From IMG/VR virus record IMGVR_UViG_3300037067_021710: DNA of 64,000 nt. One strand, 5' to 3'. The position numbers and the translations under genes are program-made. Below the pieces are notes generated by a model that did not search any database, was not told the origin of the DNA, and worked only from the letters and a program-made list of their open reading frames with translations. This document shows positions 7,889 through 35,954 of this stretch, in pieces; the first letter of the stretch is position 1; every line of letters starts with the position of its first letter. This DNA is from a virus (taxonomy: Duplodnaviria; Caudoviricetes).

Positions 7889-8476
7889 TTATTTTAATAG
7901 ATTTTTTATAAAATTACCTTTATGGTCTTTTCCTTGTTTAACTTTAGCGGGCCAACTATGTAGAATATCTTTTAATAAAGCTCTTTGTTTTTCATACGCT
8001 TCATCTTCGTCTGGGCCCATCCAAAAAGATAAATACAATTGGTCTTCATCTATAACAATTTGTTCAACATATTTTTTTAAATTTGTTATGCGTTTAGGGA
8101 CATGTAATTCATTTTCAATTTTACCGTAATATTGTGCACCATGATCAATTATTTTATAATTATTGCTTAGAGTATCTCCATCCAAAATAAATAATACTCC
8201 CGAGTCTTGATAAACTTTATTATTTGGATGTCTGGAAAAGAATACTAAATCAGCTTCGTGCGGAGGAATTGGCTGAGTTGCAATAGTACTAAACGTACCT
8301 GGAGGGCTATCATTGTGAGCCATATATTCAAAATAAGCTAACTCTAATTCTTTTTGTTGCTCTTTATTAAGCCCTAAGGTATTTGTTTTACAAATATTAA
8401 AAAAACTATCAACAGTAGTATAATGGTAAATATTCCCAACTTGTTTAGCTTCTTTTAATGAAATATATCTTTTCAT
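7889..8476 (-). CDS. Leader-bearing head protein, possible ADP-ribosyltransferase-like fold
   Basis: Better start is the ATG at 8476 (MKRYISLKE/A); IYHYT...VFFSR...ENE pattern. Confidence 0.55.
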   Translation of the reverse strand: MKRYISLKEAKQVGNIYHYTTVDSFFNICKTNTLGLNKEQQKELELAYFEYMAHNDSPPGTFSTIATQPIPPHEADLVFFSRHPNNKVYQDSGVLFILDGDTLSNNYKIIDHGAQYYGKIENELHVPKRITNLKKYVEQIVIDEDQLYLSFWMGPDEDEAYEKQRALLKDILHSWPAKVKQGKDHKGNFIKNLLK

Positions 8477-8479
8477 AAT

Positions 8480-8487
8480 TATTAGTA
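8480..8487 (-). promoter_or_regulatory. Late promoter-like box TACTAATA
   Basis: 3 nt upstream of the ATG at 8476. Confidence 0.6.
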
Positions 8488-8502
8488 ACTTTAGCAAAAA
8501 AA

Positions 8503-8531
8503 AAAGCTACTGTGTTTTAAACAGTAGCTTT
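8503..8531 (-). terminator. Intrinsic terminator after protease/scaffold gene
   Basis: AAAGCTACTGT/ACAGTAGCTTT stem followed by a U-run on the - strand. Confidence 0.75.
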
Positions 8532-8561
8532 AAATATATTTACAATTTTAAGGAGTCTTTG

Positions 8562-10766
8562 TTATTTACGGCCTTGTAACCAAGCGGGTTTTTCGGATTT
8601 TTTAGATTCAGAGAATTTTTTAATCTTCATACCATCTTGTGTCTTTACTTTACTTTTACTTTCAAATCTCATTAACTTCGCAACAGCTTCTTTAAGAGTT
8701 TTTGACTCAAGCAGATATTTTTTAATATCTTTTATTGCAGGGTTCTTTTTCATTTCCCGAGCAACAAAAGCATTAACATATGTTTTTTCTGCTAAAGGCT
8801 GTTTCTTAGAAGGACGAGGGTCTGAATTTCTTATAATTCTCTTTTCGCCATGATTGTAAGAAAACTGATAACGGCGTACTGATTCAGCTTTACGACCAGG
8901 TTCAGCAATCATTTCTTCATCATTTACTACTTCATCATCTTCATTAAGAGTTTCAGAATCCGCTACAACTGCATCAGGGTCTTCATTTACTTGGTCAAAG
9001 TCTTCTTCGATAATTTCTTCATCAGGATTGATAGCGTCGATATCTTCATCTTCATCAAGCCCATTAGGAACTTTATCTTCTATTTGACCATCATCAGTAA
9101 TTGTTTGCCCATTTTCATCTTCGTCTTCAGTTATTTCATCGGGTAGTTCATCAGTCATTTCATCATCTTCAGTAATAGGCTCTTCATCACCATCACCATC
9201 AATACCCATAACTTCTTCGTCTTCTTCCGCAATTTTTTCGTCTGAGTCCATATTACCGAGTTCTTCTTCAATCACTTCTTCTTCAGGAGTCATAGCATCA
9301 ATATCTTCGTCTTCAGCAAGTGAATTAGACCCAGAAGCTATAGTAGCTGCCGCTTTATTTTCTTTAGGATAGTCTTGGCGTTTTTCTTCTGAAGAATCCA
9401 TTTCTTCTTCAAATTTAAAACCACGTTTAATAAGCATCTGTTCATAAATCTTAATTCGTTTCTCTGCTTTAGCAAGAGACTCTTTGAATTTTTTAGATTT
9501 TTCTTTAAGATAATTAATATCAGAATCACGTTTGAGAGTGTCTTCCATAAGGTCAGTCATCTCACTTAATTTAGTGATTTCTAATTTTTTTGCAAGCTTA
9601 TGTTCAAAAAGCTTTTCAACTGCAGTAATGTCTTTTAACATCTCAGTTTCATTTTCTTTAAGACTAGAAACTTCTTCAGACATCTTCTTAACGTTTTCTT
9701 TAAGTTCGTCTACATTAACAGATTCATCAAGACCCACTTTTTCGATAATAGCTTTCGCTTTAGAATATTTTTCGTTAAGAGTTTTAAGTGCATTTTCATT
9801 TTCAATAACTTTAGCAGAAAGTTCTACAACTTTTCCCTCTGCAGTTTTCTTTTGTTCTTCAAGTTTTCCTTGAAGTTCAACAACAGTGCTATCTACACGT
9901 TCAGAAAGATCTTTAAGTTCTACAGGAACTTCAATATCTCTTAAAGTTTCAATAGCTTCTTTTAGATTTTCATTTTTACGTGCCATACGAATAGCTTCTT
10001 TAATACTATTTCGTAGTGTAGATTCTTGAAATTTTTCCATATGTTTCTTACCCTCATTTTCGTTTATATTAGAATCTTCAATTGCTTCTTTCAAAGATTG
10101 AATATTTTTTTCTTTATTATTAGTAATAGTTGCTTCTTTTGTTTCACTTAATTCATCATTTTTTTTATCAGTTTCACTATTGGGAGCCTGTTCTAAATTT
10201 TCATACGTGGCAAACACTTGTTGGGAGGGATTAATTACCGCGTCTCCCCAACGTTGTAAATCGTACGAATCTGGGTCAACAGTTTTTTCATCTTGTAAAA
10301 ACTCACCAAATCCCACACGACTTACTCCAATGGACCCACCAGCTTCAATAGTTTCTTTTATTAAGTCTCCATTATCTCCAACTAAATACCAATCACCATA
10401 ACTACAATGTTCCCCTAATTTAGGATTATGCCATACTCCACAAATGTTAAGGATAGAGCCATCTTCATCATCACCTGGATGATCAGCTAATGAAAGTGTG
10501 CCTTCAGCTATTCCTTCTTTTATAATCTTTTCATCTAAAGCTCTAGGGTATATACGGCCATTGAGATTTTCTGTATATTTGCTAACAGGAACATTTCTAA
10601 TTATATGTCTTGCTTTATATTGTTTTCCATCAACAGATTCAGTGAGAACTTCTTTTAAAGTTTCAATTTGGTTTGGCAATATATTTAATTGGCAATTCTC
10701 AATAAGAAGAATTTTACCTTTTGATTTAGCTTTTTCTTCTAAGGCTTGTCTTCGCTTTATATTCAT
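8562..10766 (-). CDS. Prohead protease (T4 gp21-like) fused to coiled-coil/acidic scaffold
   Basis: NLNGRIYP, LADHP, GVSRVGFG, DAVINPS protease motifs; coiled coil then D/E-rich tract with many [LIV]xE sites. Confidence 0.85.
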   Translation of the reverse strand: MNIKRRQALEEKAKSKGKILLIENCQLNILPNQIETLKEVLTESVDGKQYKARHIIRNVPVSKYTENLNGRIYPRALDEKIIKEGIAEGTLSLADHPGDDEDGSILNICGVWHNPKLGEHCSYGDWYLVGDNGDLIKETIEAGGSIGVSRVGFGEFLQDEKTVDPDSYDLQRWGDAVINPSQQVFATYENLEQAPNSETDKKNDELSETKEATITNNKEKNIQSLKEAIEDSNINENEGKKHMEKFQESTLRNSIKEAIRMARKNENLKEAIETLRDIEVPVELKDLSERVDSTVVELQGKLEEQKKTAEGKVVELSAKVIENENALKTLNEKYSKAKAIIEKVGLDESVNVDELKENVKKMSEEVSSLKENETEMLKDITAVEKLFEHKLAKKLEITKLSEMTDLMEDTLKRDSDINYLKEKSKKFKESLAKAEKRIKIYEQMLIKRGFKFEEEMDSSEEKRQDYPKENKAAATIASGSNSLAEDEDIDAMTPEEEVIEEELGNMDSDEKIAEEDEEVMGIDGDGDEEPITEDDEMTDELPDEITEDEDENGQTITDDGQIEDKVPNGLDEDEDIDAINPDEEIIEEDFDQVNEDPDAVVADSETLNEDDEVVNDEEMIAEPGRKAESVRRYQFSYNHGEKRIIRNSDPRPSKKQPLAEKTYVNAFVAREMKKNPAIKDIKKYLLESKTLKEAVAKLMRFESKSKVKTQDGMKIKKFSESKKSEKPAWLQGRK

Positions 10767-10792
10767 GTTTTTACCTTATTCATAATAGTATT

Positions 10793-10800
10793 TATTAGTA
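10793..10800 (-). promoter_or_regulatory. Late promoter-like box TACTAATA
   Basis: Upstream of the protease/scaffold start. Confidence 0.7.
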
Positions 10801-10825
10801 TAAATTTTTAAATTTACAAACTAAA

Positions 10826-10853
10826 AAAGCTTAGGTTTTAATACCTAAGCTTT
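10826..10853 (-). terminator. Intrinsic terminator ending the small-gene array
   Basis: AAAGCTTAGGT/ACCTAAGCTTT stem plus U-run. Confidence 0.75.
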
Positions 10854-10878
10854 ATTCTTTAATTATTGTTTATATTTT

Positions 10879-11175
10879 TTATTGATATACTATACCAGAA
10901 TCATCTAAAATAGAAATGTCTTTAGAATCTAATTTCTGTTTATGTAGTAATTTACCCCGGATTCTTATAAGTTGGCGTATATTATAAGCTTCATCTTCTA
11001 AGTGTTTATTATCTTTAACATATTGATCAATAGCCCCAATTATATTTATGCCTTCTTTTAAATGAACACTATAAGGTGATTTCCATTTCTTATGACCTTG
11101 ATTATACCCATCAAGATGATTTTCTGCAAATTTGAATTTGTATTCTTTTGATTGATTTTTCATAGTACCTTTCAT
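10879..11175 (-). CDS. Hypothetical protein with variant leader (KEYKFKFAE)
   Basis: Last gene of the leader-bearing array. Confidence 0.55.
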   Translation of the reverse strand: MKGTMKNQSKEYKFKFAENHLDGYNQGHKKWKSPYSVHLKEGINIIGAIDQYVKDNKHLEDEAYNIRQLIRIRGKLLHKQKLDSKDISILDDSGIVYQ

Positions 11176-11190
11176 ATGTTATATTTGTTT

Positions 11191-11457
11191 TTACGCTTGT
11201 CTAATAAAGTCAATTTCAATTTTATTGCTAACTTGTTCTACATTTCCACAAGCGAATCCACCGCCAAATTTAGCTCTTATTTCGTCTGTAATTTTGTCTA
11301 CTGTTTTAGAGTCAGTGCCATCTCCAGTACCTAAAGCAGTCTTAATATCTCCGAAGTCTTGAGGATAAGCAATTGTTATACTATTTTTACTGTGTGATAA
11401 TATTCTTCCTTTCGAAAGAATACTACTTTCTTTTAACTGTGACTTATATCGTTTCAT
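11191..11457 (-). CDS. Putative capsid-targeted internal protein
   Basis: Leader MKRYKSQLKE/S. Confidence 0.7.
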   Translation of the reverse strand: MKRYKSQLKESSILSKGRILSHSKNSITIAYPQDFGDIKTALGTGDGTDSKTVDKITDEIRAKFGGGFACGNVEQVSNKIEIDFIRQA

Positions 11458-11639
11458 TTTTTCTTTCCCCCAAATAATAATTTACCAGCTCCAAATAGAT
11501 ATCCTATTTGTTTTAATCTCTTAATATCAACAGCCATACTTTTTAGTACTGAGATAATAGTGTCTTCTTTATTTTCAAACGTCTCTTTATCAAGTGCTGA
11601 AAAGTCTGCTTTTTCTGTGTATTTGCTTTTGTATTTCAT
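11454..11639 (-). CDS. Putative capsid-targeted internal protein
   Basis: Leader MKYKSKYTE/K. Confidence 0.65.
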   Translation of the reverse strand: MKYKSKYTEKADFSALDKETFENKEDTIISVLKSMAVDIKRLKQIGYLFGAGKLLFGGKKK

Positions 11640-11645
11640 ACTAAC

Positions 11646-11858
11646 TTATTGTGTAATTTCAATTTTTTGTTTTTGTAAAGCTTCTAATGCATTTTGATAA
11701 TCATTTTTATTATTAAAAACAATTCTATTTGAATAGTCTTGTTTAAAAGGAATTCTTATATCATGCAATATATCCAAAGTTTTTTGTACATTGCCTCTAT
11801 ATAAAGAAACTTCTATAATAAACTTTGCTTCTTTTAAAATTGATTTATATCTTTTCAT
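11646..11858 (-). CDS. Putative capsid-targeted internal protein
   Basis: Leader MKRYKSILKE/A. Confidence 0.7.
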   Translation of the reverse strand: MKRYKSILKEAKFIIEVSLYRGNVQKTLDILHDIRIPFKQDYSNRIVFNNKNDYQNALEALQKQKIEITQ

Positions 11859-11889
11859 TATTTACCTCAAAAAGTTTTCTAATAATTTT

Positions 11890-12261
11890 TTAATCATAAA
11901 CGGGCCCTCTATAATTATCAGCTTTTAATGTGCTAATTGAAATATAGATATAGGGCGTATTTTTATTATCACTTAAATTATCTTCATTCATATGAACCTG
12001 AATTTTATCTTTTAAATTTTCATATGATGTAACATCACTTTGTTTATATGAGTCATCATAAATATGAAAATCATTCTTTTCTAACCAATGTTCAATAGCT
12101 TTAAAAGCAGAATCTTTTGCCTTCACTCGGTAAAAATCTTTTCTGTCAGGTACTTTAAATGGCTTTAAACTATCTTTATCTAACCCAAAATTCTTAGCTA
12201 ACTCATTAGCTACTTTTTGTGGTGAAGTTGATTCTTTCAAAACTGATTTATATCTTTTCAT
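11890..12261 (-). CDS. Putative capsid-targeted internal protein
   Basis: Leader MKRYKSVLKE/S. Confidence 0.7.
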   Translation of the reverse strand: MKRYKSVLKESTSPQKVANELAKNFGLDKDSLKPFKVPDRKDFYRVKAKDSAFKAIEHWLEKNDFHIYDDSYKQSDVTSYENLKDKIQVHMNEDNLSDNKNTPYIYISISTLKADNYRGPVYD

Positions 12262-12270
12262 AGTTCTCTT

Positions 12271-12543
12271 TTATATTGCTTTAATATTGTTAAGACCATA
12301 TTCTATTGAGACTCCTTTAAGTTCTGGTAAGTTAAATTTTACATTTGCTTTATGAGCAATCCTATCAACAAAAGTAACAATACCTTTAGTACCTTTCTTA
12401 ATTTTAACATTTGTAAGAGTATTTTTTCTAAAAGGCTGTTCTATAATTTTATCTATTAAAGTTTTAACTTCTTTACCTTCAAGAGTATCGTTGTCCAAAG
12501 AGGTATTTTCTTTCAAAACTGATTTATATCTTTTCATCATCAA
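12271..12543 (-). CDS. Putative capsid-targeted internal protein (SH3-like beta body)
   Basis: Leader MKRYKSVLKE/N; KKGTKGIV...VKF. Confidence 0.7.
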   Translation of the reverse strand: MMMKRYKSVLKENTSLDNDTLEGKEVKTLIDKIIEQPFRKNTLTNVKIKKGTKGIVTFVDRIAHKANVKFNLPELKGVSIEYGLNNIKAI

Positions 12544-12778
12544 TCACCCTCCGAGGTTCTTCTAATAATTCTTCACCAAGCTCTGTACAATAATTCCCTA
12601 ATCGCTTAAAGAATAATCGAGCTTCTTTAGAATTTATATGGAATAAATTTATAATAAGCTTAACGAATTTTCTTCGTTGAGCATCATTTCCAAAATTCTC
12701 ATCACGTAGCATACGGACTATTTCTGCTACTTCTGAATCTTCTAGTTGTTCATTGTATTTTGATTTGTATTGGGTCAT
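12524..12778 (-). CDS. Putative capsid-targeted internal protein
   Basis: Leader MTQYKSKYNE/Q. Confidence 0.65.
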   Translation of the reverse strand: MTQYKSKYNEQLEDSEVAEIVRMLRDENFGNDAQRRKFVKLIINLFHINSKEARLFFKRLGNYCTELGEELLEEPRRVIDDEKI

Positions 12779-12952
12779 TTATTTTAAATAGTGCTTTTTA
12801 AAATATTCAACAAGATTTTTAAATACAAATTCTTCATCATCATTAGGAAAATAGTCTGCTATATTACTGTGTAAAAGCTCACAAACTGACTTAATATCAC
12901 CTATATTTAGCTGAGCAGATACTTCACTAAGTTTACTTTTGTACTTTTTCAT
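12779..12952 (-). CDS. Putative capsid-targeted internal protein
   Basis: Better start 12952: MKKYKSKLSE/V. Confidence 0.65.
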   Translation of the reverse strand: MKKYKSKLSEVSAQLNIGDIKSVCELLHSNIADYFPNDDEEFVFKNLVEYFKKHYLK

Positions 12953-12957
12953 TATTA

Positions 12958-13299
12958 TCACCTATTTGAATAAGCTTTATTTACTATTTTATTTAAAAAT
13001 CCTATATTTCTCCAGGACCCTAGATATTTGTTATTAATATTTTCGATGTCTCTACCATATTCTTTTGCTATCTGAGCTAAAATTATGCTATTAAGCTGTC
13101 CCTCAATGAAATCATCATCATAGTCTAGCTCAATTACTTTGTCAGGCAATTCTTCTTTAGTATGAGCATCAATATACTTTGATAACTTAGCAGAACCTTT
13201 TACATTTATTTGAATTTTAAAATTAAATTCTCCCAAGTCTTCAGATCCGTTGTAAGAAGCATTTTTTGTTTCTGTTAATCTACTTTTGTACTTTTCCAT
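12958..13299 (-). CDS. Putative capsid-targeted internal protein
   Basis: Leader MEKYKSRLTE/T. Confidence 0.7.
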   Translation of the reverse strand: MEKYKSRLTETKNASYNGSEDLGEFNFKIQINVKGSAKLSKYIDAHTKEELPDKVIELDYDDDFIEGQLNSIILAQIAKEYGRDIENINNKYLGSWRNIGFLNKIVNKAYSNR

Positions 13300-13662
13300 T
13301 TATATTACCTCTTGTTGTATTATTGCTTTACCACTTACAGTAAAAGCTGTTTTTGCATCATTATACATTATATTAGTAAGACCATACTTGGCCAATGTTT
13401 CATTCACTATTTGAAAGGCTTCATCAGTTGGGTATACAATCGTTTCACCAGAATAAATTGCATCTTTCACAAATTTATCATCTTTGACTGAATACTTAAA
13501 TGTAAACGTAAACTTTACATTGTCTTTATCAGAAGTGCTATCCTTCTCTGGTACAATAAATAGTACTGAGGTTTTGAATGCTTTGTTGAAGTCATTCATT
13601 ATTTCAGTAAGAATTGAATGAGACTCTGGAACAGCTTCTGAAAATCTTGATTTATATTTCAT
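13300..13662 (-). CDS. Putative capsid-targeted internal protein
   Basis: Leader MKYKSRFSE/A. Confidence 0.7.
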   Translation of the reverse strand: MKYKSRFSEAVPESHSILTEIMNDFNKAFKTSVLFIVPEKDSTSDKDNVKFTFTFKYSVKDDKFVKDAIYSGETIVYPTDEAFQIVNETLAKYGLTNIMYNDAKTAFTVSGKAIIQQEVI

Positions 13663-13669
13663 AATTCCT

Positions 13670-13855
13670 TTATTTATAAGTCTTCATTTTATCTAAAATT
13701 TCAACAAATTTATCTCTTGCATATCCTGGGGTTACAACAAACACATGAGCAATTTTTTTAATGTCTGGCATAAGGGATTTGGCTAAATCTTCAAGTTCAC
13801 TTTCTAATGTTGCATCTTTAGTTGCTTCTGAAAATCTTGATTTATACTTCATCAT
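13670..13855 (-). CDS. Putative capsid-targeted internal protein
   Basis: Leader MKYKSRFSE/A. Confidence 0.7.
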   Translation of the reverse strand: MMKYKSRFSEATKDATLESELEDLAKSLMPDIKKIAHVFVVTPGYARDKFVEILDKMKTYK

Positions 13856-14076
13856 TTTTCCTCTATAATTTTCTTTAAATCATTAATACATTTAGTAATA
13901 ATAGCTTGATATTTACTACCATCATCTTCGTCTATAAGCCCTTGAATAGTTTTTTGTCTTCCTAAAGTTACCCATACTTGCCATAACCCTGACCCCTGAT
14001 CTTTATTGCCAAAAGACACTTCAAAATTTATTAAATGAAGACTATTTTCTGTCAATTTACTTTTGTATTTTTCCAT
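13852..14076 (-). CDS. Putative capsid-targeted internal protein
   Basis: Leader MEKYKSKLTE/N. Confidence 0.7.
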   Translation of the reverse strand: MEKYKSKLTENSLHLINFEVSFGNKDQGSGLWQVWVTLGRQKTIQGLIDEDDGSKYQAIITKCINDLKKIIEEK

Positions 14077-14077
14077 A

Positions 14078-14431
14078 TTATAACGCTCCAGCCATTTTTT
14101 GAAGATCTTTTAATGATACATTGATATAATTTGTTTCGGAATTGTCTCCATTTAATTTAATTCGTGGATAAAATTCTCCCGCCTTATTTTCTTTTATAAA
14201 ATCTAGTATTGCTTTTTTTAAATATTTTGTATCTGAAGAATCACTAAATTCAGTTAATTTACTTTTATACTTTTCCATTTTAAACTCCTCTGATAATTTA
14301 TCGTAATCTACATTGTTAGTCCAATCACTATCAAAAACCCATTTGTCTTTTTCTGAAGCTTTATCTTTAGAGCCATGCTTAGAACGCAGAGACTGTATCA
14401 TTTTAAATTGAGATTTTGATTTTGCTGGCAT
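14078..14431 (-). CDS. In-frame fusion of a small MPAKSK-type protein and a leader-bearing protein (internal start 14278)
   Basis: Internal MEKYKSKLTE/F at residue 52, preceded by GAGGAG RBS. Confidence 0.6.
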   Translation of the reverse strand: MPAKSKSQFKMIQSLRSKHGSKDKASEKDKWVFDSDWTNNVDYDKLSEEFKMEKYKSKLTEFSDSSDTKYLKKAILDFIKENKAGEFYPRIKLNGDNSETNYINVSLKDLQKMAGAL

Positions 14432-14437
14432 TATCTT

Positions 14438-14746
14438 CTACATTTCTGGAGTGATATATACAGTCCCAGAGTCATACCATTCTAATTCAAATTTGTATTT
14501 TTTAAGTAAAGATGCAAACTCTTTTAAAACACCAAATTCATCGTATAGTGCAGGATATTCATCATAGCCGTATGCGTCAAAAATGTTTATATCATCTTTA
14601 TTTAAAGACACATCTCCACCAAGTATAACTTTAGTATCATTGACTGTAGCTAATTTAAAATGTCCTTTTGGGTATTTTGACTTTAACACAGATAAAAAAG
14701 ACTCGAACGATGTTGATTCTAGCAATTGTGGTTTATAACGTTTCAT
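14438..14746 (-). CDS. Putative capsid-targeted internal protein
   Basis: Leader MKRYKPQLLE/S. Confidence 0.7.
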   Translation of the reverse strand: MKRYKPQLLESTSFESFLSVLKSKYPKGHFKLATVNDTKVILGGDVSLNKDDINIFDAYGYDEYPALYDEFGVLKEFASLLKKYKFELEWYDSGTVYITPEM

Positions 14747-14767
14747 TTTACCCTCAAATAGTTTAAT

Positions 14768-14775
14768 TATTAGTA
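14768..14775 (-). promoter_or_regulatory. Late promoter-like box TACTAATA
   Basis: Intergenic, heads the 10.9-14.7 kb array. Confidence 0.65.
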
Positions 14776-14781
14776 CAAATT

Positions 14782-15063
14782 CTATTCTTTTTCACTCTCT
14801 TGTTCATCTTGAATTTTAGCAATTTCAAGTTCTTTTTGCTTAACTACAATGTCTTGTTGAGCTTTACGCTGCTGGTCTTTTAATGAACGTATTGTGTCAG
14901 GATCAGTATCTTCTTTGTCATTTTCTCTTTTTATTTTATACTGAAGGTCTTTTAATTTTTGTTGCAAATCTTGAATAGCCAACTTAGTAGTTTCAGATTT
15001 GTCTGGCTTATCTGAACTAGTTGTGTCTTCAGCTTCGTTTAATATTGGTTTATATCGTATCAT
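14782..15063 (-). CDS. Putative capsid-targeted coiled-coil protein
   Basis: Leader MIRYKPILNE/A. Confidence 0.7.
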   Translation of the reverse strand: MIRYKPILNEAEDTTSSDKPDKSETTKLAIQDLQQKLKDLQYKIKRENDKEDTDPDTIRSLKDQQRKAQQDIVVKQKELEIAKIQDEQESEKE

Positions 15064-15074
15064 TATTTTACCTT

Positions 15075-15284
15075 TTATAATTTTTCAACGGCTAAACTAT
15101 CTCCAGAAGCATAAGTAGCAAAGCCTTTCTTTTCTATCTTTTTAATAAAATCTTGCAATTTACTTCCTGAAGTTTTACTTATATCAAACCAAGCTTTATC
15201 ACCTTTCTTAAGTTTTAAAATTTCTTTGTAAAAATCTTGAAGAGATTGTTAAGTTTCTTTTAGTTGTGGTTTGTATCGTTTCAT
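15075..15284 (-). pseudogene. Leader-bearing gene with in-frame TAA at codon 12
   Basis: MKRYKPQLKET*QSLQDFYKEILK...LAVEKL*, translated by hand. Confidence 0.7.
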
Positions 15285-15288
15285 TTAT

Positions 15289-15612
15289 TTACCTTTGATT
15301 TATAGAACCTATATGTCTTCCACCCTTAGATGGTATAAAGTCTTTTTCGATCACTGGGTATACTTCAAATTTATCTGTAGCTTTATTAATATGAACGAAC
15401 CATTTTTCGTTAGTACTTTTATCAAGCTCTTCTTGTAAAGTTTTAAAATCATCTAAATCAAAACAAATAATTTTTGAGCTCGTTATTTTATAGTCAATAC
15501 TAAATTTTTTCAATATTTGTTCAACAATCGTTGTTTTAAATACTCTAGTATTACCACCAGGTGTTTTAATCTTAAGCTCAGTTTCTTTTAATTGTGGTTT
15601 GTATCGTTTCAT
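15289..15612 (-). CDS. Putative capsid-targeted internal protein
   Basis: Leader MKRYKPQLKE/T. Confidence 0.7.
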   Translation of the reverse strand: MKRYKPQLKETELKIKTPGGNTRVFKTTIVEQILKKFSIDYKITSSKIICFDLDDFKTLQEELDKSTNEKWFVHINKATDKFEVYPVIEKDFIPSKGGRHIGSINQR

Positions 15613-16238
15613 TTAGAATTCCTATCTAAATATTTTTTAATCATTTGTCTCATCATTGGTATAAAAAACTTTATACCGTTTACAATTCCAGCAGCATGTT
15701 TGTCTAATAGTTGATTTCCCCCATGATATTTATTCCAATGATTAGGGGGTCGATGCTCAGGATAAATAGCTGCATCAAATTGAGTCATATTAAAATTCAT
15801 CCCTTGAAACTGAAACGCAGGGACATCCGACCAAACTTTTATATCACAATTTAAAAATACTTCTTCAATATCTTTGTCTGTTACATTTGGGTACCCAGGA
15901 GTTGTCTCAAGAAGTTTAAAAAAATCTAATACACGAATTTCAATAGTATATAAATTTCCATTTTCCAAACTCATTGAAGTTGGCTCAACAACTTTTGCAT
16001 TGAAATTATCAGGGTATTTCGGAGTGCGTTCAGTGAGCCAAATAAATGTCACATAATCTTCTGCTTTATTTATTCGTAATTGAGTAAGCTTTGCTCTATT
16101 CGTTGGATTACCCATAAGCTTATTAGTTTCTTTGGCAAATTTTCTTGTGAAAGCAGACATTGAGGCATTTTTCATTAGATCTGTGAATCTAAGATTTTCG
16201 AGAAGAAGCCATTTATTTATTTGTTTATAACGTATCAT
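15609..16238 (-). CDS. Leader-bearing protein, degenerate SWIM-like phage family
   Basis: MIRYKQ...LLE/N; DIKVWSDVPAF...RPP...LDKH. Confidence 0.45.
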   Translation of the reverse strand: MIRYKQINKWLLLENLRFTDLMKNASMSAFTRKFAKETNKLMGNPTNRAKLTQLRINKAEDYVTFIWLTERTPKYPDNFNAKVVEPTSMSLENGNLYTIEIRVLDFFKLLETTPGYPNVTDKDIEEVFLNCDIKVWSDVPAFQFQGMNFNMTQFDAAIYPEHRPPNHWNKYHGGNQLLDKHAAGIVNGIKFFIPMMRQMIKKYLDRNSK

Positions 16239-16975
16239 TAATTTTCTTCTAAATACATATACATATATTTGTAAAGAAGTTTCAAAGGGTCTTCATTAAT
16301 TTCAAAATTTTTATGGTATTCTTTCAACATACCATTAAACTTAAATTTTACAATATTATCAGCTTTAAGAATATTCGCAATAGTAGAACTAGATTTTCCA
16401 GTTAATTTAAAAGAATATATTATTTGCCAAGCATAAGCCATTATTTCTTGTTTAGAACCCAAATATTTTTTATTATCAGCTTTACTTTTTGTAAGCATTT
16501 TATTTCTAATTTCTTCATTTTCAATTCTCAAACTTTGTTCTCTATGTATTAATTCATGCCCTAAAATTTCTTTAAATTGAAGTATAAAATTATTAAAATT
16601 TTCTTCTGAATTTGCTATAGTTAAAAGATTAGAAAAATAAAAAATAAAAATTAATTGAGATTTTATATTTATACCACCAGTAGTAATAAATCTTTCATTA
16701 TTTACTGGAGAATACTTAAAAAGTATTTTATCAAATTCAAGAACTTTATTTAATGATCTTTGAATTTCATTTAAGTCTAATCGAGACCCAAACGTCTTAA
16801 AATGTTTTTTTAGCTGCCTTACTTTTTCTATAATTTCAGTAATGTGATTTTCAGGGCTAATAACAGCTTCTTGAAATAATTCTAAAGAATTAACTTCATA
16901 CCCATTATCTAACAATACTGCTAATTGTTCATCAAAGTCTTCAATGTTTTCTATACAAGAAAGATAACGTTTCAT
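16238..16975 (-). CDS. Leader-bearing HExxH zincin-like protein, paralog 1
   Basis: MKRYLSCIE/N; LGHELIHREQ...QEIMAYA; LYKYMYMYL end. Confidence 0.65.
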   Translation of the reverse strand: MKRYLSCIENIEDFDEQLAVLLDNGYEVNSLELFQEAVISPENHITEIIEKVRQLKKHFKTFGSRLDLNEIQRSLNKVLEFDKILFKYSPVNNERFITTGGINIKSQLIFIFYFSNLLTIANSEENFNNFILQFKEILGHELIHREQSLRIENEEIRNKMLTKSKADNKKYLGSKQEIMAYAWQIIYSFKLTGKSSSTIANILKADNIVKFKFNGMLKEYHKNFEINEDPLKLLYKYMYMYLEEN

Positions 16976-17409
16976 ACAGATATTACATCACCGATTTCAT
17001 TAATAAAAATTGCAGTATCAATTAGGTCTTGTAAAATATTATTTTTAACTTTTATTGCTCTTAAAATATTTGGGTATGCTCTTCTTAAAAGAGCAAGTTG
17101 CCTATTATTTATTTCTACTTGGCCTTCTCCGTAAATTACAATATAAATAATGTCCCCAATTAAGGCAGCTCTACCACGTAAATTGCCTTTATGAGTTTTG
17201 TGAGAAAGAATACTTTTATCTCCATTTGGTGGATTATCATGATGAGCTTCTTTAGCATCAATTATTTTACCTTCAGGAGAAACCCAGAAAACTAGAAGAG
17301 GTTTTGTGTGAGTAATAGCTCTTATAGCTTTGTCTGTATCAGCTTCTTTAAGAATTTTAAGAAATTCTTTTGAATGTTGTATAATAGATATTTGTTTATA
17401 TCGTTTCAT
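16972..17409 (-). CDS. Putative capsid-targeted protein (extended leader)
   Basis: MKRYKQ...ILKE/A; FWVSPEG..HH. Confidence 0.6.
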   Translation of the reverse strand: MKRYKQISIIQHSKEFLKILKEADTDKAIRAITHTKPLLVFWVSPEGKIIDAKEAHHDNPPNGDKSILSHKTHKGNLRGRAALIGDIIYIVIYGEGQVEINNRQLALLRRAYPNILRAIKVKNNILQDLIDTAIFINEIGDVISV

Positions 17410-17638
17410 TTATTTTATTTTTTAAATTTTGTATAATACTTTCTATTGAAGGTATTTGCTTTATAGAATAATACAATAATGATTCATCCTTTAACTGCGG
17501 AGTATTTGGATTTTTAAAATCTAATGGCCAAAAATAAAAGTACCCTTTACCTTTTATTAATTCATACCCTAAAGGAAGTAGGGCTTTATTTATTTTAATA
17601 AGAGTTATACTTTCAATTAATGAATTATAGCGTCGCAT
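17396..17638 (-). CDS. Putative capsid-targeted internal protein
   Basis: Leader MRRYNSLIE/S. Confidence 0.65.
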   Translation of the reverse strand: MRRYNSLIESITLIKINKALLPLGYELIKGKGYFYFWPLDFKNPNTPQLKDESLLYYSIKQIPSIESIIQNLKNKINETI

Positions 17639-17661
17639 AATTCTCTTTTTGCTTTATAAAT

Positions 17662-17700
17662 AAATAGCTCTATTAATTTATTAACTAATAGAGCTATTTT
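17662..17700. terminator. Inverted repeat, probable terminator
   Basis: AAATAGCTCTATTA/TAATAGAGCTATTT. Confidence 0.6.
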
Positions 17701-17720
17701 AAAATACAGTCTCTATCGTA

Positions 17721-17873
17721 TTATTTATTAGTAATACGACTTTGCTTCTTAACTTGACGCGCAGCTTCCATGATTTTGTTCATAGTAGCTCTTCCAGCTC
17801 GATTAAGCTTACGAAGCTCTCTAACTGCATGCTCAAGCTCCTGCGCCTTTTTTAGTACAATCGCTTTTGCCAT
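17721..17873 (-). CDS. 50 aa basic helical protein (not in ORF track)
   Basis: AGGAGG RBS; MAKAIVLKKAQELEHAVRELRKLNRAGRATMNKIMEAARQVKKQSRITNK. Confidence 0.7.
   Translation of the reverse strand: MAKAIVLKKAQELEHAVRELRKLNRAGRATMNKIMEAARQVKKQSRITNK
17726..17733 (-). promoter_or_regulatory. Late promoter-like box TACTAATA
   Basis: Upstream of the 14.8-17.6 kb leader-bearing genes. Confidence 0.5.
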
Positions 17874-17902
17874 GTCTATACCTCCTATAGTATAAAGTGC
17901 AT

Positions 17903-18115: not shown

Positions 18116-18210
18116 ATAAAGTTTTTCTCCTTAAAATATATATCCTAAAAACAATATATATTATATTGTTTAAAAAGTAAACAAAAAAATGTAAATTTAT
18201 TGAAATTTTT

Positions 18211-18858: not shown

Positions 18859-18865
18859 ACTTTAC

Positions 18866-28128: not shown

Positions 28129-30165
28129 TTACTCCTCATTTTTTATTTTTGTTCGCCGAGGTCTTTTCATTTGATCTTTTGATTCTGACCCATAACTAAA
28201 CTTATACTTTTTAACTTCAAATTTTTCTTCTGCTTCTTTTAATGTTTTTCTCTTGGCTGTAACTCCAGGCTTTTTTGAATCGTCACAAGCTAATTTAATA
28301 TCTATTTCTCTTAAAATTTTTGGATCAAAATATGGGTCTTGATTACATGAAGAATAATAATGCTTTCCAAGCAATACTCCTTCGCGAAGTTTTAATTGTT
28401 TATGATCATAGATATGATTTTGAATAGTTTCATTAAGCTTAGTTTTAGTCTCATGTTCAGCTTCAACACTTTCCCATAGTTCTCTCAAAATAAGTTTCTT
28501 AGCTTTTTTAGTTTCAGCATCTACTTTTGCATCTTCATCTTCTTCTTGCCCAGCTTCAGGGGGAGTGTCAGTATTTTTTTGTTTCTGGTCTAATATATCT
28601 TTCATCCATTTATAAATTGTCTTATCATCATAAGGCAAGAATTTTGTATAAATCGTTTTGATAACTTCTGGAGGAATAGCTGCAATTTCTCCGCCAGTTA
28701 ACTTGTCTGCTAATGATTGAATAACATCATTTGCTAATCCAAGTAAATCTTTTTGATTATTAATCATATCAGAATTAGTCATAGTTTCGGGGTATGGCAT
28801 ACTTAAAATAAAATCAAGGTCATCTAATGCAAATTCATTAGAATGAATCATATGAATTTTAACTAATTGTGAAACTTGTTGTAATACAAGTTGTTGTATT
28901 CTATATACTAATCTCGCTAATGGCTTCCATTCTTGAATTGCAGAAACTCCACTTGTACCAAAACCACTATCTTTAGGGTCTAATAAGAAACGCGGCAATA
29001 ATGTAGATAATATTAAATCATCACGCAATAAATCAATGTCATCTATTTTACCAAGATCAATATTTGAAACTTTTTGCTCAAATTCAAATAAGTCTTCGAT
29101 TGTAATAACAGTAGACCCAACACCGTTCTCTTCTTTATTAACAGCATTTATTCCTGAGTTTTGCCATTCATTCATAAACTCAAGAGCACGATTAAGCTTT
29201 TCAGTAGGATGTAAAGTATTAGGAAATTTTAACTTGTACATATCTATTGGCAGTCGAGCCCCACGAGCAGCTATTTGCATAGTCATCGCAGAGTCAAACT
29301 GCCGATAAGGAGCTATTGAATGAATAAATACTGGAACTCCAAAAGGTTTAAATGGAGATTCAGTAGTAAAATTTCTAAAATGTAAAAATCTCCAAGGTGG
29401 TATTGCATAATCTCCTACCACAAAGCCAAATAAATACTCTTTAAAATATGATACTATATTATCATTGTTTTGTATCATATCTACGAGTTGGTCAATTCGA
29501 AGAATTTTAGATTTATAAGCAGTAAAGAATTTGTCATTTCGTTCAACTAATTGCTTTACTCTATATGCGGAAAACTCTAGCCTATCTTTTAAATCAAAAA
29601 TACTTATAGGGATAATCCCATCAATTCCATTCTCTGCTAAAGCTAAAATCCAACCAGCATTCCCATATTTTATAATGTTTAATGCAGTAGGCCTTAAAAA
29701 ACTATATATATTTAATGTATCAAAAAGCTTTTGTATAAATTGTTTTTGTTTTGGCTTTGCTTCAATAGTAATAGGCTGCTCATGAGTATCCGCTTGAATA
29801 ACTTCGTCAGCAATAAGTTCCATTGCTTTAGCTATTAATGGTGAATTATAATATAATAAATCACAATCATACCAAAGATCATTGCGATTTTTCCACGATT
29901 GAGCATCATCATGAGAAGAAAATAACCACTTATCATAGTATTTTCTAACTTCAGGGGGAAAAACTTCCCTGACTCTGTGAGATTCTCCAGTTTGCTTATC
30001 TTTAACAAGGTCAGTAGGAAAAACTTTAGCTGATACTACATTTTGTTTTCCTTGTACTCCTATATTAAAGAAGCGAAGAAACTTTCGAGTAACAGACTTG
30101 TCTTCTTTATTAAAACCAAAGTCCTTATCAGCAGTTATATTTTTATTTGAAATTAAGTCAGCCAT
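28129..30165 (-). CDS. Portal protein (T4 gp20-like) with C-terminal extension
   Basis: IAKAMELIADEV, IIKYGN, WRFLHFR, PFGVP, LGKIDDID motifs. Confidence 0.85.
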   Translation of the reverse strand: MADLISNKNITADKDFGFNKEDKSVTRKFLRFFNIGVQGKQNVVSAKVFPTDLVKDKQTGESHRVREVFPPEVRKYYDKWLFSSHDDAQSWKNRNDLWYDCDLLYYNSPLIAKAMELIADEVIQADTHEQPITIEAKPKQKQFIQKLFDTLNIYSFLRPTALNIIKYGNAGWILALAENGIDGIIPISIFDLKDRLEFSAYRVKQLVERNDKFFTAYKSKILRIDQLVDMIQNNDNIVSYFKEYLFGFVVGDYAIPPWRFLHFRNFTTESPFKPFGVPVFIHSIAPYRQFDSAMTMQIAARGARLPIDMYKLKFPNTLHPTEKLNRALEFMNEWQNSGINAVNKEENGVGSTVITIEDLFEFEQKVSNIDLGKIDDIDLLRDDLILSTLLPRFLLDPKDSGFGTSGVSAIQEWKPLARLVYRIQQLVLQQVSQLVKIHMIHSNEFALDDLDFILSMPYPETMTNSDMINNQKDLLGLANDVIQSLADKLTGGEIAAIPPEVIKTIYTKFLPYDDKTIYKWMKDILDQKQKNTDTPPEAGQEEDEDAKVDAETKKAKKLILRELWESVEAEHETKTKLNETIQNHIYDHKQLKLREGVLLGKHYYSSCNQDPYFDPKILREIDIKLACDDSKKPGVTAKRKTLKEAEEKFEVKKYKFSYGSESKDQMKRPRRTKIKNEE

Positions 30166-32713: not shown

Positions 32714-32733
32714 TTACTAATAATTATTAGTAA
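32714..32733. promoter_or_regulatory. Palindromic bidirectional late promoter-like site
   Basis: Perfect palindrome TTACTAATAATTATTAGTAA between divergent genes. Confidence 0.75.
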
Positions 32734-32803: not shown

Positions 32804-33538
32804 TTGAAAAGGTACTCTGAGATAACTAAAAGTGAAGAAATCTATAAATTAGCAAAATTGGATGAAGAATGCTATTGTTTAATAACTCCTACTGGAAGAT
32901 TTCTTTATGAAGCAATAATAGATGTTGACCCTGAGGTAGAAACAATAATTCAAAAAGTTAAAGAAGTTAAAAATAAAATTTTCCAATGCACAAGTATAGA
33001 TAGTATTATTTCTATGCTTAATAAACTTTTAGCTTCACGAAAAATAAAATTTGGATTTACTAGAGGACTTTTAAACGAATATATAGCTTATGGCGGATTT
33101 ATTCCATCTACTCAAGAATTAACTTTTATTTTTACTTCAAAAATTCAAGACTTTATAGATAAAGATATTGACAAAAACGTAGAGTTTAAACAATTTTTAA
33201 ATTCTTTACAAAGACCATTAGGGCACGAACTAATACATAGAGAACAGTTTTTAAAGGTAGCTTATGAAGAAAAAAGAAAAGAAATATTTAAAAAAAGTTC
33301 ATCAATTAAAGATAAATATTATTCAAACAAGCATGAAATGATGAGTTATGCTTGGCAAATTATAAATGAATTTAGAATGAATGGAATAGAAGATTCAAGC
33401 ATAAAAAAGATTTTAGCTACTAAAAGTGAAGTTAAACTAGAAATAGGTGGTCCAATATTAAAAGACTACCATAAATATTTCCCTGGTCAAGAAGTTCTTA
33501 AAGGACTATACAAATATATGTATATGTACTTAGACTAA
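32804..33538 (+). CDS. Leader-bearing HExxH zincin-like protein, paralog 3
   Basis: MKRYSEI; LGHELIHREQ...HEMMSYA; LYKYMYMYL. Confidence 0.65.
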   Translation: MKRYSEITKSEEIYKLAKLDEECYCLITPTGRFLYEAIIDVDPEVETIIQKVKEVKNKIFQCTSIDSIISMLNKLLASRKIKFGFTRGLLNEYIAYGGFIPSTQELTFIFTSKIQDFIDKDIDKNVEFKQFLNSLQRPLGHELIHREQFLKVAYEEKRKEIFKKSSSIKDKYYSNKHEMMSYAWQIINEFRMNGIEDSSIKKILATKSEVKLEIGGPILKDYHKYFPGQEVLKGLYKYMYMYLD

Positions 33539-33543
33539 ATATT

Positions 33544-34020
33544 ATGAAACGATATATACCCTTAACAGAAGAAATGCTTGATGGAGTAGTTCGTCCTATT
33601 TTTGACTCAAAGAAAGCTATTCAAGTATATCGAATTGAATCTCTTGCTGAAGTTAAAAAATTAGGGCCAGAACCTAGAGGGGCTATCACAATTGGCCAAT
33701 TATATATGACAAAGACTAATTCTATGGTTCTTCATATGGATATTGTAGCTTTTTTAAGAAAATTTGAAGGCCTTAATCTACAAACTAACTTAAACCCAAA
33801 AGTCTCTATTCAATCTCTCAAAGATGTCCTATATATTCAAATGTATAAAGGTAAAGCTCTATTAGCAGAATCTTATGGAGCAGAAATAAGAATTATGTTA
33901 GAAGCATGGAATAATAAGAAGCAAATGACTAAGAAACAATTATATATGAAAAAATGTATTGAAAAACATTTAGAAGTTCTTAAGCAATTAAATATACCAT
34001 TCGAATTAAGAGCAATATGA
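33544..34020 (+). CDS. Putative capsid-targeted internal protein
   Basis: Leader MKRYIPLTE/E. Confidence 0.7.
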   Translation: MKRYIPLTEEMLDGVVRPIFDSKKAIQVYRIESLAEVKKLGPEPRGAITIGQLYMTKTNSMVLHMDIVAFLRKFEGLNLQTNLNPKVSIQSLKDVLYIQMYKGKALLAESYGAEIRIMLEAWNNKKQMTKKQLYMKKCIEKHLEVLKQLNIPFELRAI

Positions 34021-34334
34021 AGCGATATCAACAACTTAAAGAATCTTTTACTTCTGAATTATATAAAGAAATGTTAAAAGAAGTATTAAAATATCTCCCT
34101 AAAGAAGCTTTCAAAGGTATTTCTACATATAACTCAAAATTAGGTAGTCGAAATAACTTTGAAGTTACTATTCCAAAAAATAACATTTTTACTAAGGGCT
34201 TATATGTGCATGTAGGGTCTGCAGAAGACAAATATGAAGCAATGAGTAAAGCTCTTGAAAGTATAAGTAGAAGATTTGAAGAACCTGAAGAGTATGGTAC
34301 AATTGAAGATTTAATAAAGTCAGGAAGTATATGA
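34017..34334 (+). CDS. Putative capsid-targeted internal protein
   Basis: Leader MKRYQQLKE/S. Confidence 0.7.
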   Translation: MKRYQQLKESFTSELYKEMLKEVLKYLPKEAFKGISTYNSKLGSRNNFEVTIPKNNIFTKGLYVHVGSAEDKYEAMSKALESISRRFEEPEEYGTIEDLIKSGSI

Positions 34335-34612
34335 TGAAACTATTTAAAGAACGATTTGCTGCTTATGCCCAAATATATGTTTATGACCTTTATTATAAAG
34401 ATAGTCTGCTATGTACATTCTATACAAAAGATTCTCTTCTAATGTTTAAACGACAATTTGAAAAAACTCCATTGTACTATTATGGCACTATAGAAGATAC
34501 TCATATGTCAGATCATCTTAGAGCTAAAAAACGAACAGCTTTTATAGAAACAGAAATTGATTTTGCTAAATTGTCAAAAATGACTAATGGAACTATTGAA
34601 ACTATAAAATGA
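34331..34612 (+). CDS. Hypothetical protein with shortened leader (MMKLFKE)
   Basis: Inside the leader operon. Confidence 0.55.
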   Translation: MMKLFKERFAAYAQIYVYDLYYKDSLLCTFYTKDSLLMFKRQFEKTPLYYYGTIEDTHMSDHLRAKKRTAFIETEIDFAKLSKMTNGTIETIK

Positions 34613-35094
34613 AACGATACAAAGAAATAAAAAAACCTGCAGAAACGAATGCTCTTAATAAACTAGAAATAATAAAGTTCTATCAAAAACTATCAACTAA
34701 GTCTATGCGGAAATTTAAAGGAGACTTTGATCGAAAAGAATTCGGAAGTCTTGATAAAATGTATATTATGCCCAGCAATGAGTTTTATGATATTGCACAA
34801 AATAACCAAACATTAGCTTTTTTTAGAGTAAGAGATTTTAGTATATATGTTAATGCTGACACAGTAAAAAATCCAGACTTTTCTGCTATTATGTTACATG
34901 AATTAGCTCATACAAGAAACTATCGATTATCAATAGAGGAGCTAATAAAAGAAATTGATGAAATGAAAGTAATTCTTGAAGAAGATAACTTTTGGGGTGG
35001 AGATGCTTATAGTCAAAAAGATAGTAGGTATGAACTACAAGAAACTCATTCTAATGTGTATGTGCGATTTAAAATGATGGGGCATACTTTATGA
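34609..35094 (+). CDS. Leader-bearing HExxH metallopeptidase-like protein
   Basis: MKRYKEI; IYVN...MLHELAH...H. Confidence 0.6.
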   Translation: MKRYKEIKKPAETNALNKLEIIKFYQKLSTKSMRKFKGDFDRKEFGSLDKMYIMPSNEFYDIAQNNQTLAFFRVRDFSIYVNADTVKNPDFSAIMLHELAHTRNYRLSIEELIKEIDEMKVILEEDNFWGGDAYSQKDSRYELQETHSNVYVRFKMMGHTL

Positions 35095-35411
35095 AACGAT
35101 ATATTCCTTTAAAAGAAGATGTCCAAAAAGATAATCTTACTTTCTTTAAAAATAAAGAAGACGATAAGCTTATTAGACTTTATCCAGAAGATGGTCTTAC
35201 TGGCTTAGATAATACTCTACTTGCTACAGAGATTATAATAAAACTTTATAGTTCTTCTGAAAAAGAATTTAAAAAATTTACCTTTCCAATTCTTAAAGCA
35301 AAAATTTCTAATTATTGTATAAAATATAAGAAAAAAATTTACCCTGTATTATTTAATAAACGATATAAGTATTTATACATTGTTATTGAAAACGACTATG
35401 AAACGATATAA
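35091..35411 (+). CDS. Putative capsid-targeted internal protein
   Basis: Leader MKRYIPLKE/D. Confidence 0.7.
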   Translation: MKRYIPLKEDVQKDNLTFFKNKEDDKLIRLYPEDGLTGLDNTLLATEIIIKLYSSSEKEFKKFTFPILKAKISNYCIKYKKKIYPVLFNKRYKYLYIVIENDYETI

Positions 35412-35598
35412 ATCTCTACAAGAAGAGCAAGATGATATTAAAGTAGGTGACACCCTACTTACCGGCAAGTGGAAGAATAAGAAAGTAGTAGTGGCTGGTT
35501 TTGGAACTGATAAAAATAATCAGCCAACTGTTTTAACAGATAAAGGTGAAATTCCACTTTATAAATTCAGAATTCAGAAACTTATGGTAGAAAAATGA
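35398..35598 (+). CDS. Putative capsid-targeted SH3/KOW-like protein
   Basis: Better start 35398: MKRYKSLQE/E; IKVGDTLLTGKWKNKK. Confidence 0.7.
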   Translation: MKRYKSLQEEQDDIKVGDTLLTGKWKNKKVVVAGFGTDKNNQPTVLTDKGEIPLYKFRIQKLMVEK

Positions 35599-35954
35599 AA
35601 AGATATAAACCCTTAAACGAAAGTACTTATATACAGCCTAATAAAAAATTTAGGGGTTGGATAACTACAGAAGATAAGGTTATAGAAATTCCTAGAGGAG
35701 AAGAACATTGGGAATATATGAAGCCTTTTCGAAAGGAAAGAGATGCTCTTGATGCTGACTGGATTAGATTTTATACAATCAATGGAGATAATATTGCCCC
35801 TATAGGCTACTTAGAATTTGAAGTAAATGACTGGGATAACAAAACTTTTAGACGTGTTTACGACTTTTATATGAAACATTTAAAAGGAGATGAAAGACCA
35901 ATAACAGTAAGTTGGCATGCTAAAACTAAATATTATAAACCAAATTTTAAATAA
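35595..35954 (+). CDS. Putative capsid-targeted internal protein
   Basis: Leader MKRYKPLNE/S. Confidence 0.7.
   Translation: MKRYKPLNESTYIQPNKKFRGWITTEDKVIEIPRGEEHWEYMKPFRKERDALDADWIRFYTINGDNIAPIGYLEFEVNDWDNKTFRRVYDFYMKHLKGDERPITVSWHAKTKYYKPNFK

Follow-up and report, generated by a model that had tools for sequence, protein, structure and literature searches.

Why do about 40 proteins encoded in and around the head-gene region of one phage begin with the same nine to ten residues? The question is raised by a 64,000-nt stretch of DNA from the virus (Duplodnaviria; Caudoviricetes) record IMGVR_UViG_3300037067_021710 of IMG/VR. This stretch, called the window in the following, is AT-rich (G+C about 29%) and coding dense. 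We curated 40 leader-bearing open reading frames (ORFs), of which 33 are minus-strand ORFs starting at 8476–24095 and seven are plus-strand ORFs starting at 32804–35595. Their 9–10-residue leader follows the consensus M-[KE]-[RK]-Y-K-S-x-L-x-E, or a version one residue shorter. With a probability of roughly 0.7 we read this leader as a capsid-targeting propeptide of the T4 type that ends in a site for the prohead protease. Judged by sequence and by analogy to T4, the ~40 tagged proteins are probably an unusually large head-loaded set, and the finding is best read as a large, expanded variant of the known T4-type system of capsid targeting and internal proteins.

The leader is conserved as a peptide

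A tyrosine at position 3 or 4 is invariant in all 40 leaders and precedes the glutamate by five residues in 17 genes and by six in 21. An initial regular expression yielded 37 matches in six frames, all of them within two array blocks, compared with a mean of 1.3 and a maximum of 5 in 50 shuffles. With a greedy gene set the strict pattern was found in 33 of 47 genes within the arrays and in none of 99 elsewhere (Fisher P = 5.6e-22). The seven leader genes outside the strict pattern keep M-x-[RK]-Y; they either lack a nearby hydrophobic-x-Glu or start with GTG or TTG. Leave-one-out scoring with a position-specific scoring matrix (PSSM) separated the two groups without overlap, the leaders scoring at least +6.2 bits and the N-termini outside the arrays at most −0.3 bits. 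An earlier reading made from the letters of this DNA alone (the sequence-only reading) had claimed about 40 ORFs with a common leader of 9–10 residues that is lacking in the other small genes, and had proposed a motif search against a shuffled background. Both claims hold far beyond chance.

The codons behind the leader differ from gene to gene. Arginine is encoded by AGA (10), CGA (13), CGT (4), CGC (1) and AGG (1), serine by TCA (17), AGT (5), AGC (2) and TCT (2); four leucine codons are in use, and the tyrosine and glutamate codons also vary synonymously. Since this variation includes AGN/TCN and AGR/CGN switches, it argues for selection on the peptide. The leader is conserved as a peptide, not as DNA; conservation at the DNA level alone, which had been named beforehand as speaking against the sequence-only reading, is not what we find.

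A gp21-family prohead protease and its cleavage motif

The window holds the following head genes:

6227–7699, minus strand: gp23-like major capsid protein (Pfam Gp23, 3.3e-9)
8562–10766, minus strand: predicted prohead protease of the T4 gp21 / Peptidase S77 type (about residues 1–195) fused to a predicted scaffold (residues ~200–734), 734 residues in total
28129–30165, minus strand: gp20-like portal protein (Pfam Portal_T4, 7.8e-6)

The N-terminus of the 734-residue protein matches the gp21 prohead proteases of Aeromonas T4-like phages. In BLASTP against gp21 of Aeromonas phage 65, which itself scores 9e-70 on the Pfam model Peptidase_S77 (PF03420), we obtained an E value of 2e-15, with NGRIYP, HPGD and GVS.RG.G kept. 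A profile built from eight clade proteases matches the T4 gp21 structure (PDB 5jbl) at E 1.9e-4. Furthermore, Foldseek placed the AlphaFold2 (AF2) model of the protease (predicted local distance difference test, pLDDT, 82) on 5jbl at E 2.8e-8 with a probability of 1.00, the next match having an E value of 0.065. His96 and Ser149 are invariant among the clade proteases and align with the His and Ser that we take to be catalytic in T4 gp21. By sequence comparison and structure modelling, the protein thus carries a gp21-family prohead protease with the gp21 fold. The other ~540 residues comprise a coiled coil and a strongly acidic tract, the sequence features of a putative scaffold fused to the protease. 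No family model matched this predicted scaffold region; a tblastn match to Aeromonas phage avDM6 runs on into the annotated scaffold gene of that phage.

At the end of the leaders stands a hydrophobic-x-Glu motif, as it does at the putative scaffold sites and in the putative capsid propeptide. At the level of the motif only, [LIFYVM]-x-E lies at leader positions 7–10 in 33 of the 40 leaders, and of the 38 leaders with a Glu cut site, about 28 by hand count carry S, A, T, G or N at P1′. Within the scaffold, [LIV]-x-E|[AG] sites are kept at several positions in four relatives, among them NLKE|AIE (residues ~268–273) and TLKE|AV (residues ~691–696). The putative propeptide of the capsid protein ends KQLNE|TIISQNF, ~74 residues in and before the conserved mature domain, and this [LM]-x-E|[TA] boundary is conserved in nine clade members. 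The P3 residue of the leader, which is Leu in this phage and Phe in the related loci L009 and L011, showed no lineage-wise co-variation with the capsid or scaffold sites. The first 10 residues of the protease, MNIKRRQALE, likewise end in A-L-E. They may be a propeptide of the protease itself, recalling the LIE-9 site near the N-terminus of T4 gp21 that is discussed in PMC9026906.

The capsid protein gave no tblastn match among 50,697 GenBank phage records, and a pairwise BLASTP comparison with gp23 of Aeromonas phage 65 was not significant. On the strength of the missing GenBank match, we regard this uncultivated phage as a distant T4-superfamily member. An identical capsid protein is also encoded on a metagenome contig of ~165 kb.

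The arrays are laid out like head transcription units

The tagged genes form a main array, a divergent second array and one lone gene:

7889–8476, minus strand: lone leader gene, MKRYISLKE, 195 residues, between the protease-scaffold and capsid genes
10879–24095, minus strand: main array of 32 leader genes with a few leaderless ORFs among them, closely packed and frequently coupled through ATGA
11457–11191, 11639–11454, 11858–11646, 12261–11890, 12537–12271, 12778–12524, 12952–12779, 13299–12958, minus strand: main-array leader genes 1–8
13662–13300, 13852–13670, 14076–13852, 14278–14078, 14746–14438, 15063–14782, 15612–15289, 16238–15609, minus strand: main-array leader genes 9–16
16975–16238, 17409–16972, 17638–17396, 18858–18211, 19905–19225, 21081–20701, 21367–21083, 21639–21370, minus strand: main-array leader genes 17–24
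22020–21655, 22450–22013, 22812–22453, 23088–22828, 23367–23110, 23660–23370, 23928–23674, 24095–23925, minus strand: main-array leader genes 25–32
32804–35954, plus strand: second array, divergent, seven leader genes and the leaderless ORF 34331–34612
32804 (TTG), 33544, 34017, 34609, 35091, 35398 and 35595, plus strand: starts of the second-array leader genes

The main array does lie between the capsid and protease genes and the portal gene, as the sequence-only reading had it; leaderless ORFs occur inside it, and leaderless genes occupy the ~4 kb (24.1–28.1 kb) that separate it from the portal gene. The lone gene 7889–8476 gave no family match.

The arrays share candidate transcription signals with the head genes:

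24150–24157, minus strand: TACTAATA box before the first array gene
14775–14768, 10800–10793, 8487–8480, 7834–7827 and 30203–30196, minus strand: other TACTAATA boxes, that at 8487–8480 belonging to the lone leader gene and that at 30203–30196 to the portal gene
32715–32722, plus strand: TACTAATA box
10826–10853, minus strand: terminator-like hairpin separating the last array gene from the protease gene, 11-bp stem with a T run
8503–8531, minus strand: second terminator-like hairpin, after the protease-scaffold gene, 11-bp stem with a T run

The box TACTAATA precedes the genes for the capsid, protease and portal proteins and the tagged gene 7889–8476; in the main array it stands before the first gene and before an internal one (14775), and two further boxes point outward in the divergent region where the plus-strand array begins. 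Its position alone makes TACTAATA a candidate for a late-promoter element; the late promoters of T4 have the sequence TATAAATA. The placement of the array behind such boxes, claimed earlier, is confirmed for both arrays; the box is not enriched overall, as it occurs 16 times against an estimated ~13 expected from base composition. Nine to ten of the copies are placed in the scarce intergenic gaps, preceding head genes and both arrays. With their shared boxes and hairpins the arrays are organised like head transcription units and are sited among them, and from this layout late expression of the arrays appears likely.

Some further features of the main array were observed:

14078–14431, minus strand: ORF with a full leader, MEKYKSKLTE, at the internal Met 14278, preceded by 51 in-frame residues starting MPAKSKSQFKM
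17640–18210, minus strand: break in the array with the leaderless ORFs 17721–17873 and 17903–18115, an inverted repeat and, at 17733, a TACTAATA box
18866–19228, minus strand: leaderless ORF, S-adenosylmethionine decarboxylase (Pfam AdoMet_dc, E 3.6e-7)
19915–20616, minus strand: leaderless ORF of ~223 residues, start GTG or an internal ATG, no family match

The ORF 14078–14431 could be a fused gene, or its start could be wrongly called; in the related locus L010 (2313–2735) an ORF starting MPSKSEQQ, which resembles its upstream part, occurs as a standalone gene. The break at 17640–18210 may be an inserted element. A polyamine-synthesis gene amid head-cargo genes is intriguing because packaged DNA is neutralised by polyamines.

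The tag is kept in related phages while the cargo turns over

Relatives of the capsid protein (31–71% identity) were found in metagenomes only, and we read seven further loci. Searches for loci with the single portal and protease sequences gave no further ones, and a profile search with the capsid protein yielded nothing beyond the same three IMG/VR contigs and their JGI duplicates. In six of the seven loci (capsid identity 42–71%) a protease-scaffold fusion of 553–746 residues is encoded directly upstream of the capsid gene, and a tagged array lies directly upstream of the protease-scaffold gene. The leaders of these relatives read MKRYKS.., M.YKSKF.E, MK..[YW]KS[LI]F.E and M[KE]RY.[PR]LF... 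In the seventh locus (36% capsid identity) the portal, protease and capsid genes form a compact module, and tagged genes are absent. With a loose pattern, ~118 tagged ORFs in the partial loci fall into ~101 families; the widest are that of 15609–16238, present in six loci, and another present in four, with no others that wide. A comparison of array content among related phages, proposed with the sequence-only reading, thus yields arrays that are alike and bodies that are almost entirely different. The tag is kept across the clade while the cargo turns over almost completely.

This conserved layout bears on whether the tag could address other machinery, such as a modifying enzyme (as a leader of ribosomally synthesized and post-translationally modified peptides or a radical-SAM leader tag would), another part of the virion (neck, tail or baseplate), or the export or degradation pathways of the host. 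We consider such a destination improbable: the tag terminates in a protease motif, and every relative with an array has it immediately before the protease-scaffold gene. The leader is also too short and polar for Sec or lipoprotein export, and Pfam scans of the leaderless ORFs in or beside the array in the window found the S-adenosylmethionine decarboxylase and no modifying enzyme.

The arrays also carry traces of how they may have grown. Four adjacent gene pairs have identical leader peptides on unrelated bodies (permutation P = 2.5e-4), and leader forms cluster by region, the long form being concentrated at 11.4–15.6 kb and the short form at 17–24 kb. One copy of the leader stands before a broken gene:

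15075–15284, minus strand: nonsense-disrupted leader gene, MKRYKPQLKET, TAA, then 57 in-frame codons

The leader DNA of this gene is one synonymous base apart from that of its neighbour 15612–15289, which leaves two readings of the gene, as a cassette in decay or as a candidate for read-through. Together, the adjacent identical leaders on unrelated bodies and the decaying copy suggest that bodies may be captured behind copied leaders; the library would grow by local leader copying, body replacement and decay.

A shared start that worked at the nucleic-acid level only, as a translation enhancer or as a recombination handle for shuffling cassettes, with an idle peptide, would also fit the leaders shared by neighbouring genes with unrelated bodies, the clustering of leader subtypes by region, the pseudogene leader that is a near-exact DNA copy of its neighbour's and the A-rich leader codons. 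We nevertheless hold this to be very improbable, given the extensive synonymous variation around an invariant Tyr and a near-invariant Glu and given that across relatives at 42–71% capsid identity it is the peptide, not the DNA, that is conserved. A recombination role could coexist with the peptide role, not substitute for it. Tentatively, and with rather low confidence, we propose such a double use: the tag of each family would be its own capsid-targeting signal and the ~30-nt leader would double as a recombination handle for more than 100 single-domain cassettes, making the head region an integron-like site for injected cargo. The clade would then have split the injected-effector strategy into separate cassettes, and its injected proteome would be readable from the sequence.

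Other mobile or unusual genes were observed in or beside the head modules and arrays:

4952–6172, plus strand, in the window: homing-endonuclease-like gene, matching DUF7487 and PHROG 3339, in or beside the head module and arrays
127–945 of locus L007: homing-endonuclease-like gene with a weak GIY-YIG Pfam match, in or beside the head module and array
6833–7663 of locus L009: ORF with a similar MYGIIYKA N-terminus, in or beside the head module and array
11709–13443 of locus L011, minus strand: IS605 OrfB / Cas12f-like TnpB gene and a resolvase, directly downstream of the capsid gene
14222–18893 of L012, the leaderless outgroup: NeuB, CMP-sugar transferase-like and glycosyltransferase genes (a sialic-acid-type pathway) beside the head genes

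The bodies are diverse and mostly without known domains

When the leader was removed, BLASTP among the 40 bodies left 35 singletons, one trio and one pair, in agreement with the claim that the proteins are mostly unrelated after the leader. All 40 bodies were compared with Pfam at E 0.01, 20 of them singly at E 0.1, and also with PHROGs and NCBIfam. Only two were named: 20701–21081 by DUF5661 and one other by a PHROG of unknown function. Among the labels given to bodies in the sequence-only reading, HExxH (the trio) and DUF5661 stood up, whereas ParB, ART and SH3 found no match in Pfam, PHROGs or NCBIfam. The body of 33544–34020 (plus strand) had no relative among 5.8 billion proteins. The summed mature masses come to ~500 kDa per set. 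Three cargo families gave more information:

20701–21081, minus strand: DUF5661 leader gene, MNYKSKFSE (Pfam PF18905, E 1.3e-6, 29.1 bits against a cut-off of 27)
16238–16975 (minus strand), 19225–19905 (minus strand) and 32804–33538 (plus strand): HExxHR family of three paralogues by BLASTP
15609–16238, minus strand: family with the degenerate leader MIRYKQ..., present in six of the seven related loci

The HExxHR trio has 25 metagenomic homologues, nearly all of which begin MK.Y. Across the 28 sequences (~35% identity) only 10 columns are invariant; they include H140, E141, H144 and R145, E177 (in Glu-x-Met), three C-terminal Tyr and Glu36. This Glu36, the putative P1 residue, sits in [LF]xE|A[VI]I.PE.Y, 0 to ~35 residues past MKRY. 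From these sequence features, the trio is a candidate family of zincin-like metallopeptidases; its putative propeptide is long, differs in length between members and keeps the P1 Glu throughout. Pfam matches of the family are all below threshold (BSP, M76, M91, LPD1). The AF2 model of a family member (pLDDT 92) had no significant match to zincin folds: the best Foldseek matches were PprI/IrrE, selecase and abylysin at E ≥ 0.14, and VIA-align gave Z ≤ 6.2 with top matches that hold no zincin. Two longer homologues have a ~150-residue N-terminal domain in place of the short leader, and at least one of these, P0099, keeps an L-x-E|DVLNPDY site.

The 15609–16238 family reached 553 representative clusters in a profile search (E ≤ 1e-3), and many of its short forms start MKRYK. 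In its fused forms a further domain is inserted between the same leader and the 15609–16238 domain: ART-PolyVal in P0130 (E 2.4e-26) and DUF5661 in P0116. ART-PolyVal belongs to the polyvalent proteins, which were proposed to be packaged and injected (PMC5512222), and its fusion behind the same leader lends indirect support to delivery.

The bodies bear on a further explanation, in which the tag does target the prohead and is cleaved, and the proteins are structural or space-filling core parts, like T4 gp67 and gp68 or DNA-condensing internal proteins, that are not injected. The 15609–16238 family behaves in six of seven relatives like a core gene, the tagged genes beside the protease and capsid genes occupy the position of T4 gp67/gp68, and an Atlas search gave structural look-alikes within T4-like portal proteins, which we treat as a lead only. 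Set against this, most families are lineage-specific orphans whose very fast turnover would be uncommon among structural parts, the enzyme-like HExxH motif occurs in at least one family, and fused relatives carry the ART-PolyVal domain. We therefore judge a purely structural role unlikely, if somewhat less so than a tag for other machinery. It is plausible, by analogy, that the bodies are injected effectors; that they serve in host takeover or anti-defence is speculative.

Comparison with known systems

In T4 the capsid targeting sequence (CTS) reads MKTYQEFIAE (PMC8442874); its residues 4 and 7 direct targeting and 8 and 10 processing, and gp21 cuts after the Glu (PMC9026906). The leader shares M1, K2, Y4, a hydrophobic residue at position 8 and E10 with this sequence, and the six-residue Tyr-Glu spacing is that of 21 leaders. 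As with the T4 internal proteins (IPs), a short N-terminal propeptide stands on otherwise unrelated proteins and the bodies are hypervariable between related phages; the gp21-fold protease, the gp23-like capsid protein and the gp20-like portal protein are further points of agreement. If the parallel holds, the tagged proteins would be made late, together with the head genes, and the Met-Lys-Arg-Tyr part of the tag would dock them on the scaffold core within the assembling prohead. The protease would then cleave [LIFY]-x-Glu behind its Glu, leaving the mature bodies in the head, from which they would exit with the DNA at infection. Packaging, cleavage and ejection are all inferred here from the T4 analogy.

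The system differs from T4 in having ~40 tagged genes instead of three IPs, in two large head-region arrays instead of scattered small loci, in a basic leader (MKRYKS.LKE) followed by bodies that range from acidic to basic, in a protease fused to the scaffold, and in being known from genes alone. Across the T-even phages, the signal sequence has served to recognise at least 10 IP families (PMC12373910).

Several points weigh against a T4-type propeptide. On the leader PSSM the T4 CTS reaches only −8.9 bits, a value that 13 of 328 Met-started 10-mers equal or exceed (top ~4%). Seven leaders are without a nearby Glu site, and that of 22812–22453 has Pro at P1′ and may not be cleavable. The cleavage motif alone is not specific, as L-x-E is common in a proteome rich in Lys, Glu and Leu. 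The Pfam model Peptidase_S77 (PF03420) gives no direct match to the protease of the window. The bodies have isoelectric points from 4.7 to 9.6 and are not uniformly basic as the T4 IPs are. Finally, ~70 kb of the contig of at least 165 kb were examined, so the exclusivity of the leader is demonstrated for that portion only. Since the likeness to the T4 CTS is one of outline, the case rests on context: the address tag posited in the sequence-only reading agrees with the protease, the motif, the layout and the conservation in the clade, and we regard that reading as partly supported. On this context we prefer the capsid-targeting propeptide.

Giant phages offer a second comparison. In phiKZ, 201phi2-1 and SPN3US a gp21-related protease also cuts many head-internal proteins after Glu, the N-terminal propeptides are thought to target the prohead, and paralogues can share N-termini (PMC5694885, PMC7411985). 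There the propeptides are mostly longer than 100 residues and the motif is A/S/G-x-E; SPN3US has eight processed proteins, and PMC5694885 reports no array of genes with one short common leader. Leaders of 9–10 residues with a hydrophobic P3 do not fit the ejection proteins of this type.

The polyvalent proteins (Iyer et al. 2017, PMC5512222) likewise form a diverse repertoire, including zincin-like peptidases and ART domains, that is predicted to be packaged and delivered with DNA. Possible counterparts here are the DUF5661 cargo, the HExxH trio with its sub-threshold LPD1 match and the relative with ART-PolyVal fused behind the same leader. Polyvalent proteins combine 2–15 domains in one polypeptide (PMC5512222); here the genes are separate, small and each tagged. 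In phage P1, an N-terminal signal is sufficient to load DarB into the head and the cargo counters restriction (PMC9024508). The P1 signal takes up more than 9 residues and no more than 30, and there is no consensus among the six Dar proteins (PMC9024508); P1 also has no separate scaffold of the T4 type. A literature search found no paper describing dozens of CTS-type genes arrayed in one phage.

Implications for T4-type phages

T4 has three IPs, each of which blocks a distinct GmrSD-type restriction enzyme (PMC12373910), and for that reason CTS-tagged proteins are a proven class of first-minute anti-defence proteins. If the tag works as in T4, ~40 such proteins take up ~18 kb in this phage, or roughly one tenth of its genome, and its relatives would add ~100 more families, almost all of them without a known domain. 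Candidate injected effectors could then be catalogued straight from sequence. The phage would provide a natural test bed for the capacity of a T4-type head for foreign proteins, and its leader a possible second tag for the engineering of protein-delivery phages. If true, the T4 CTS principle would extend far past the T-even phages.

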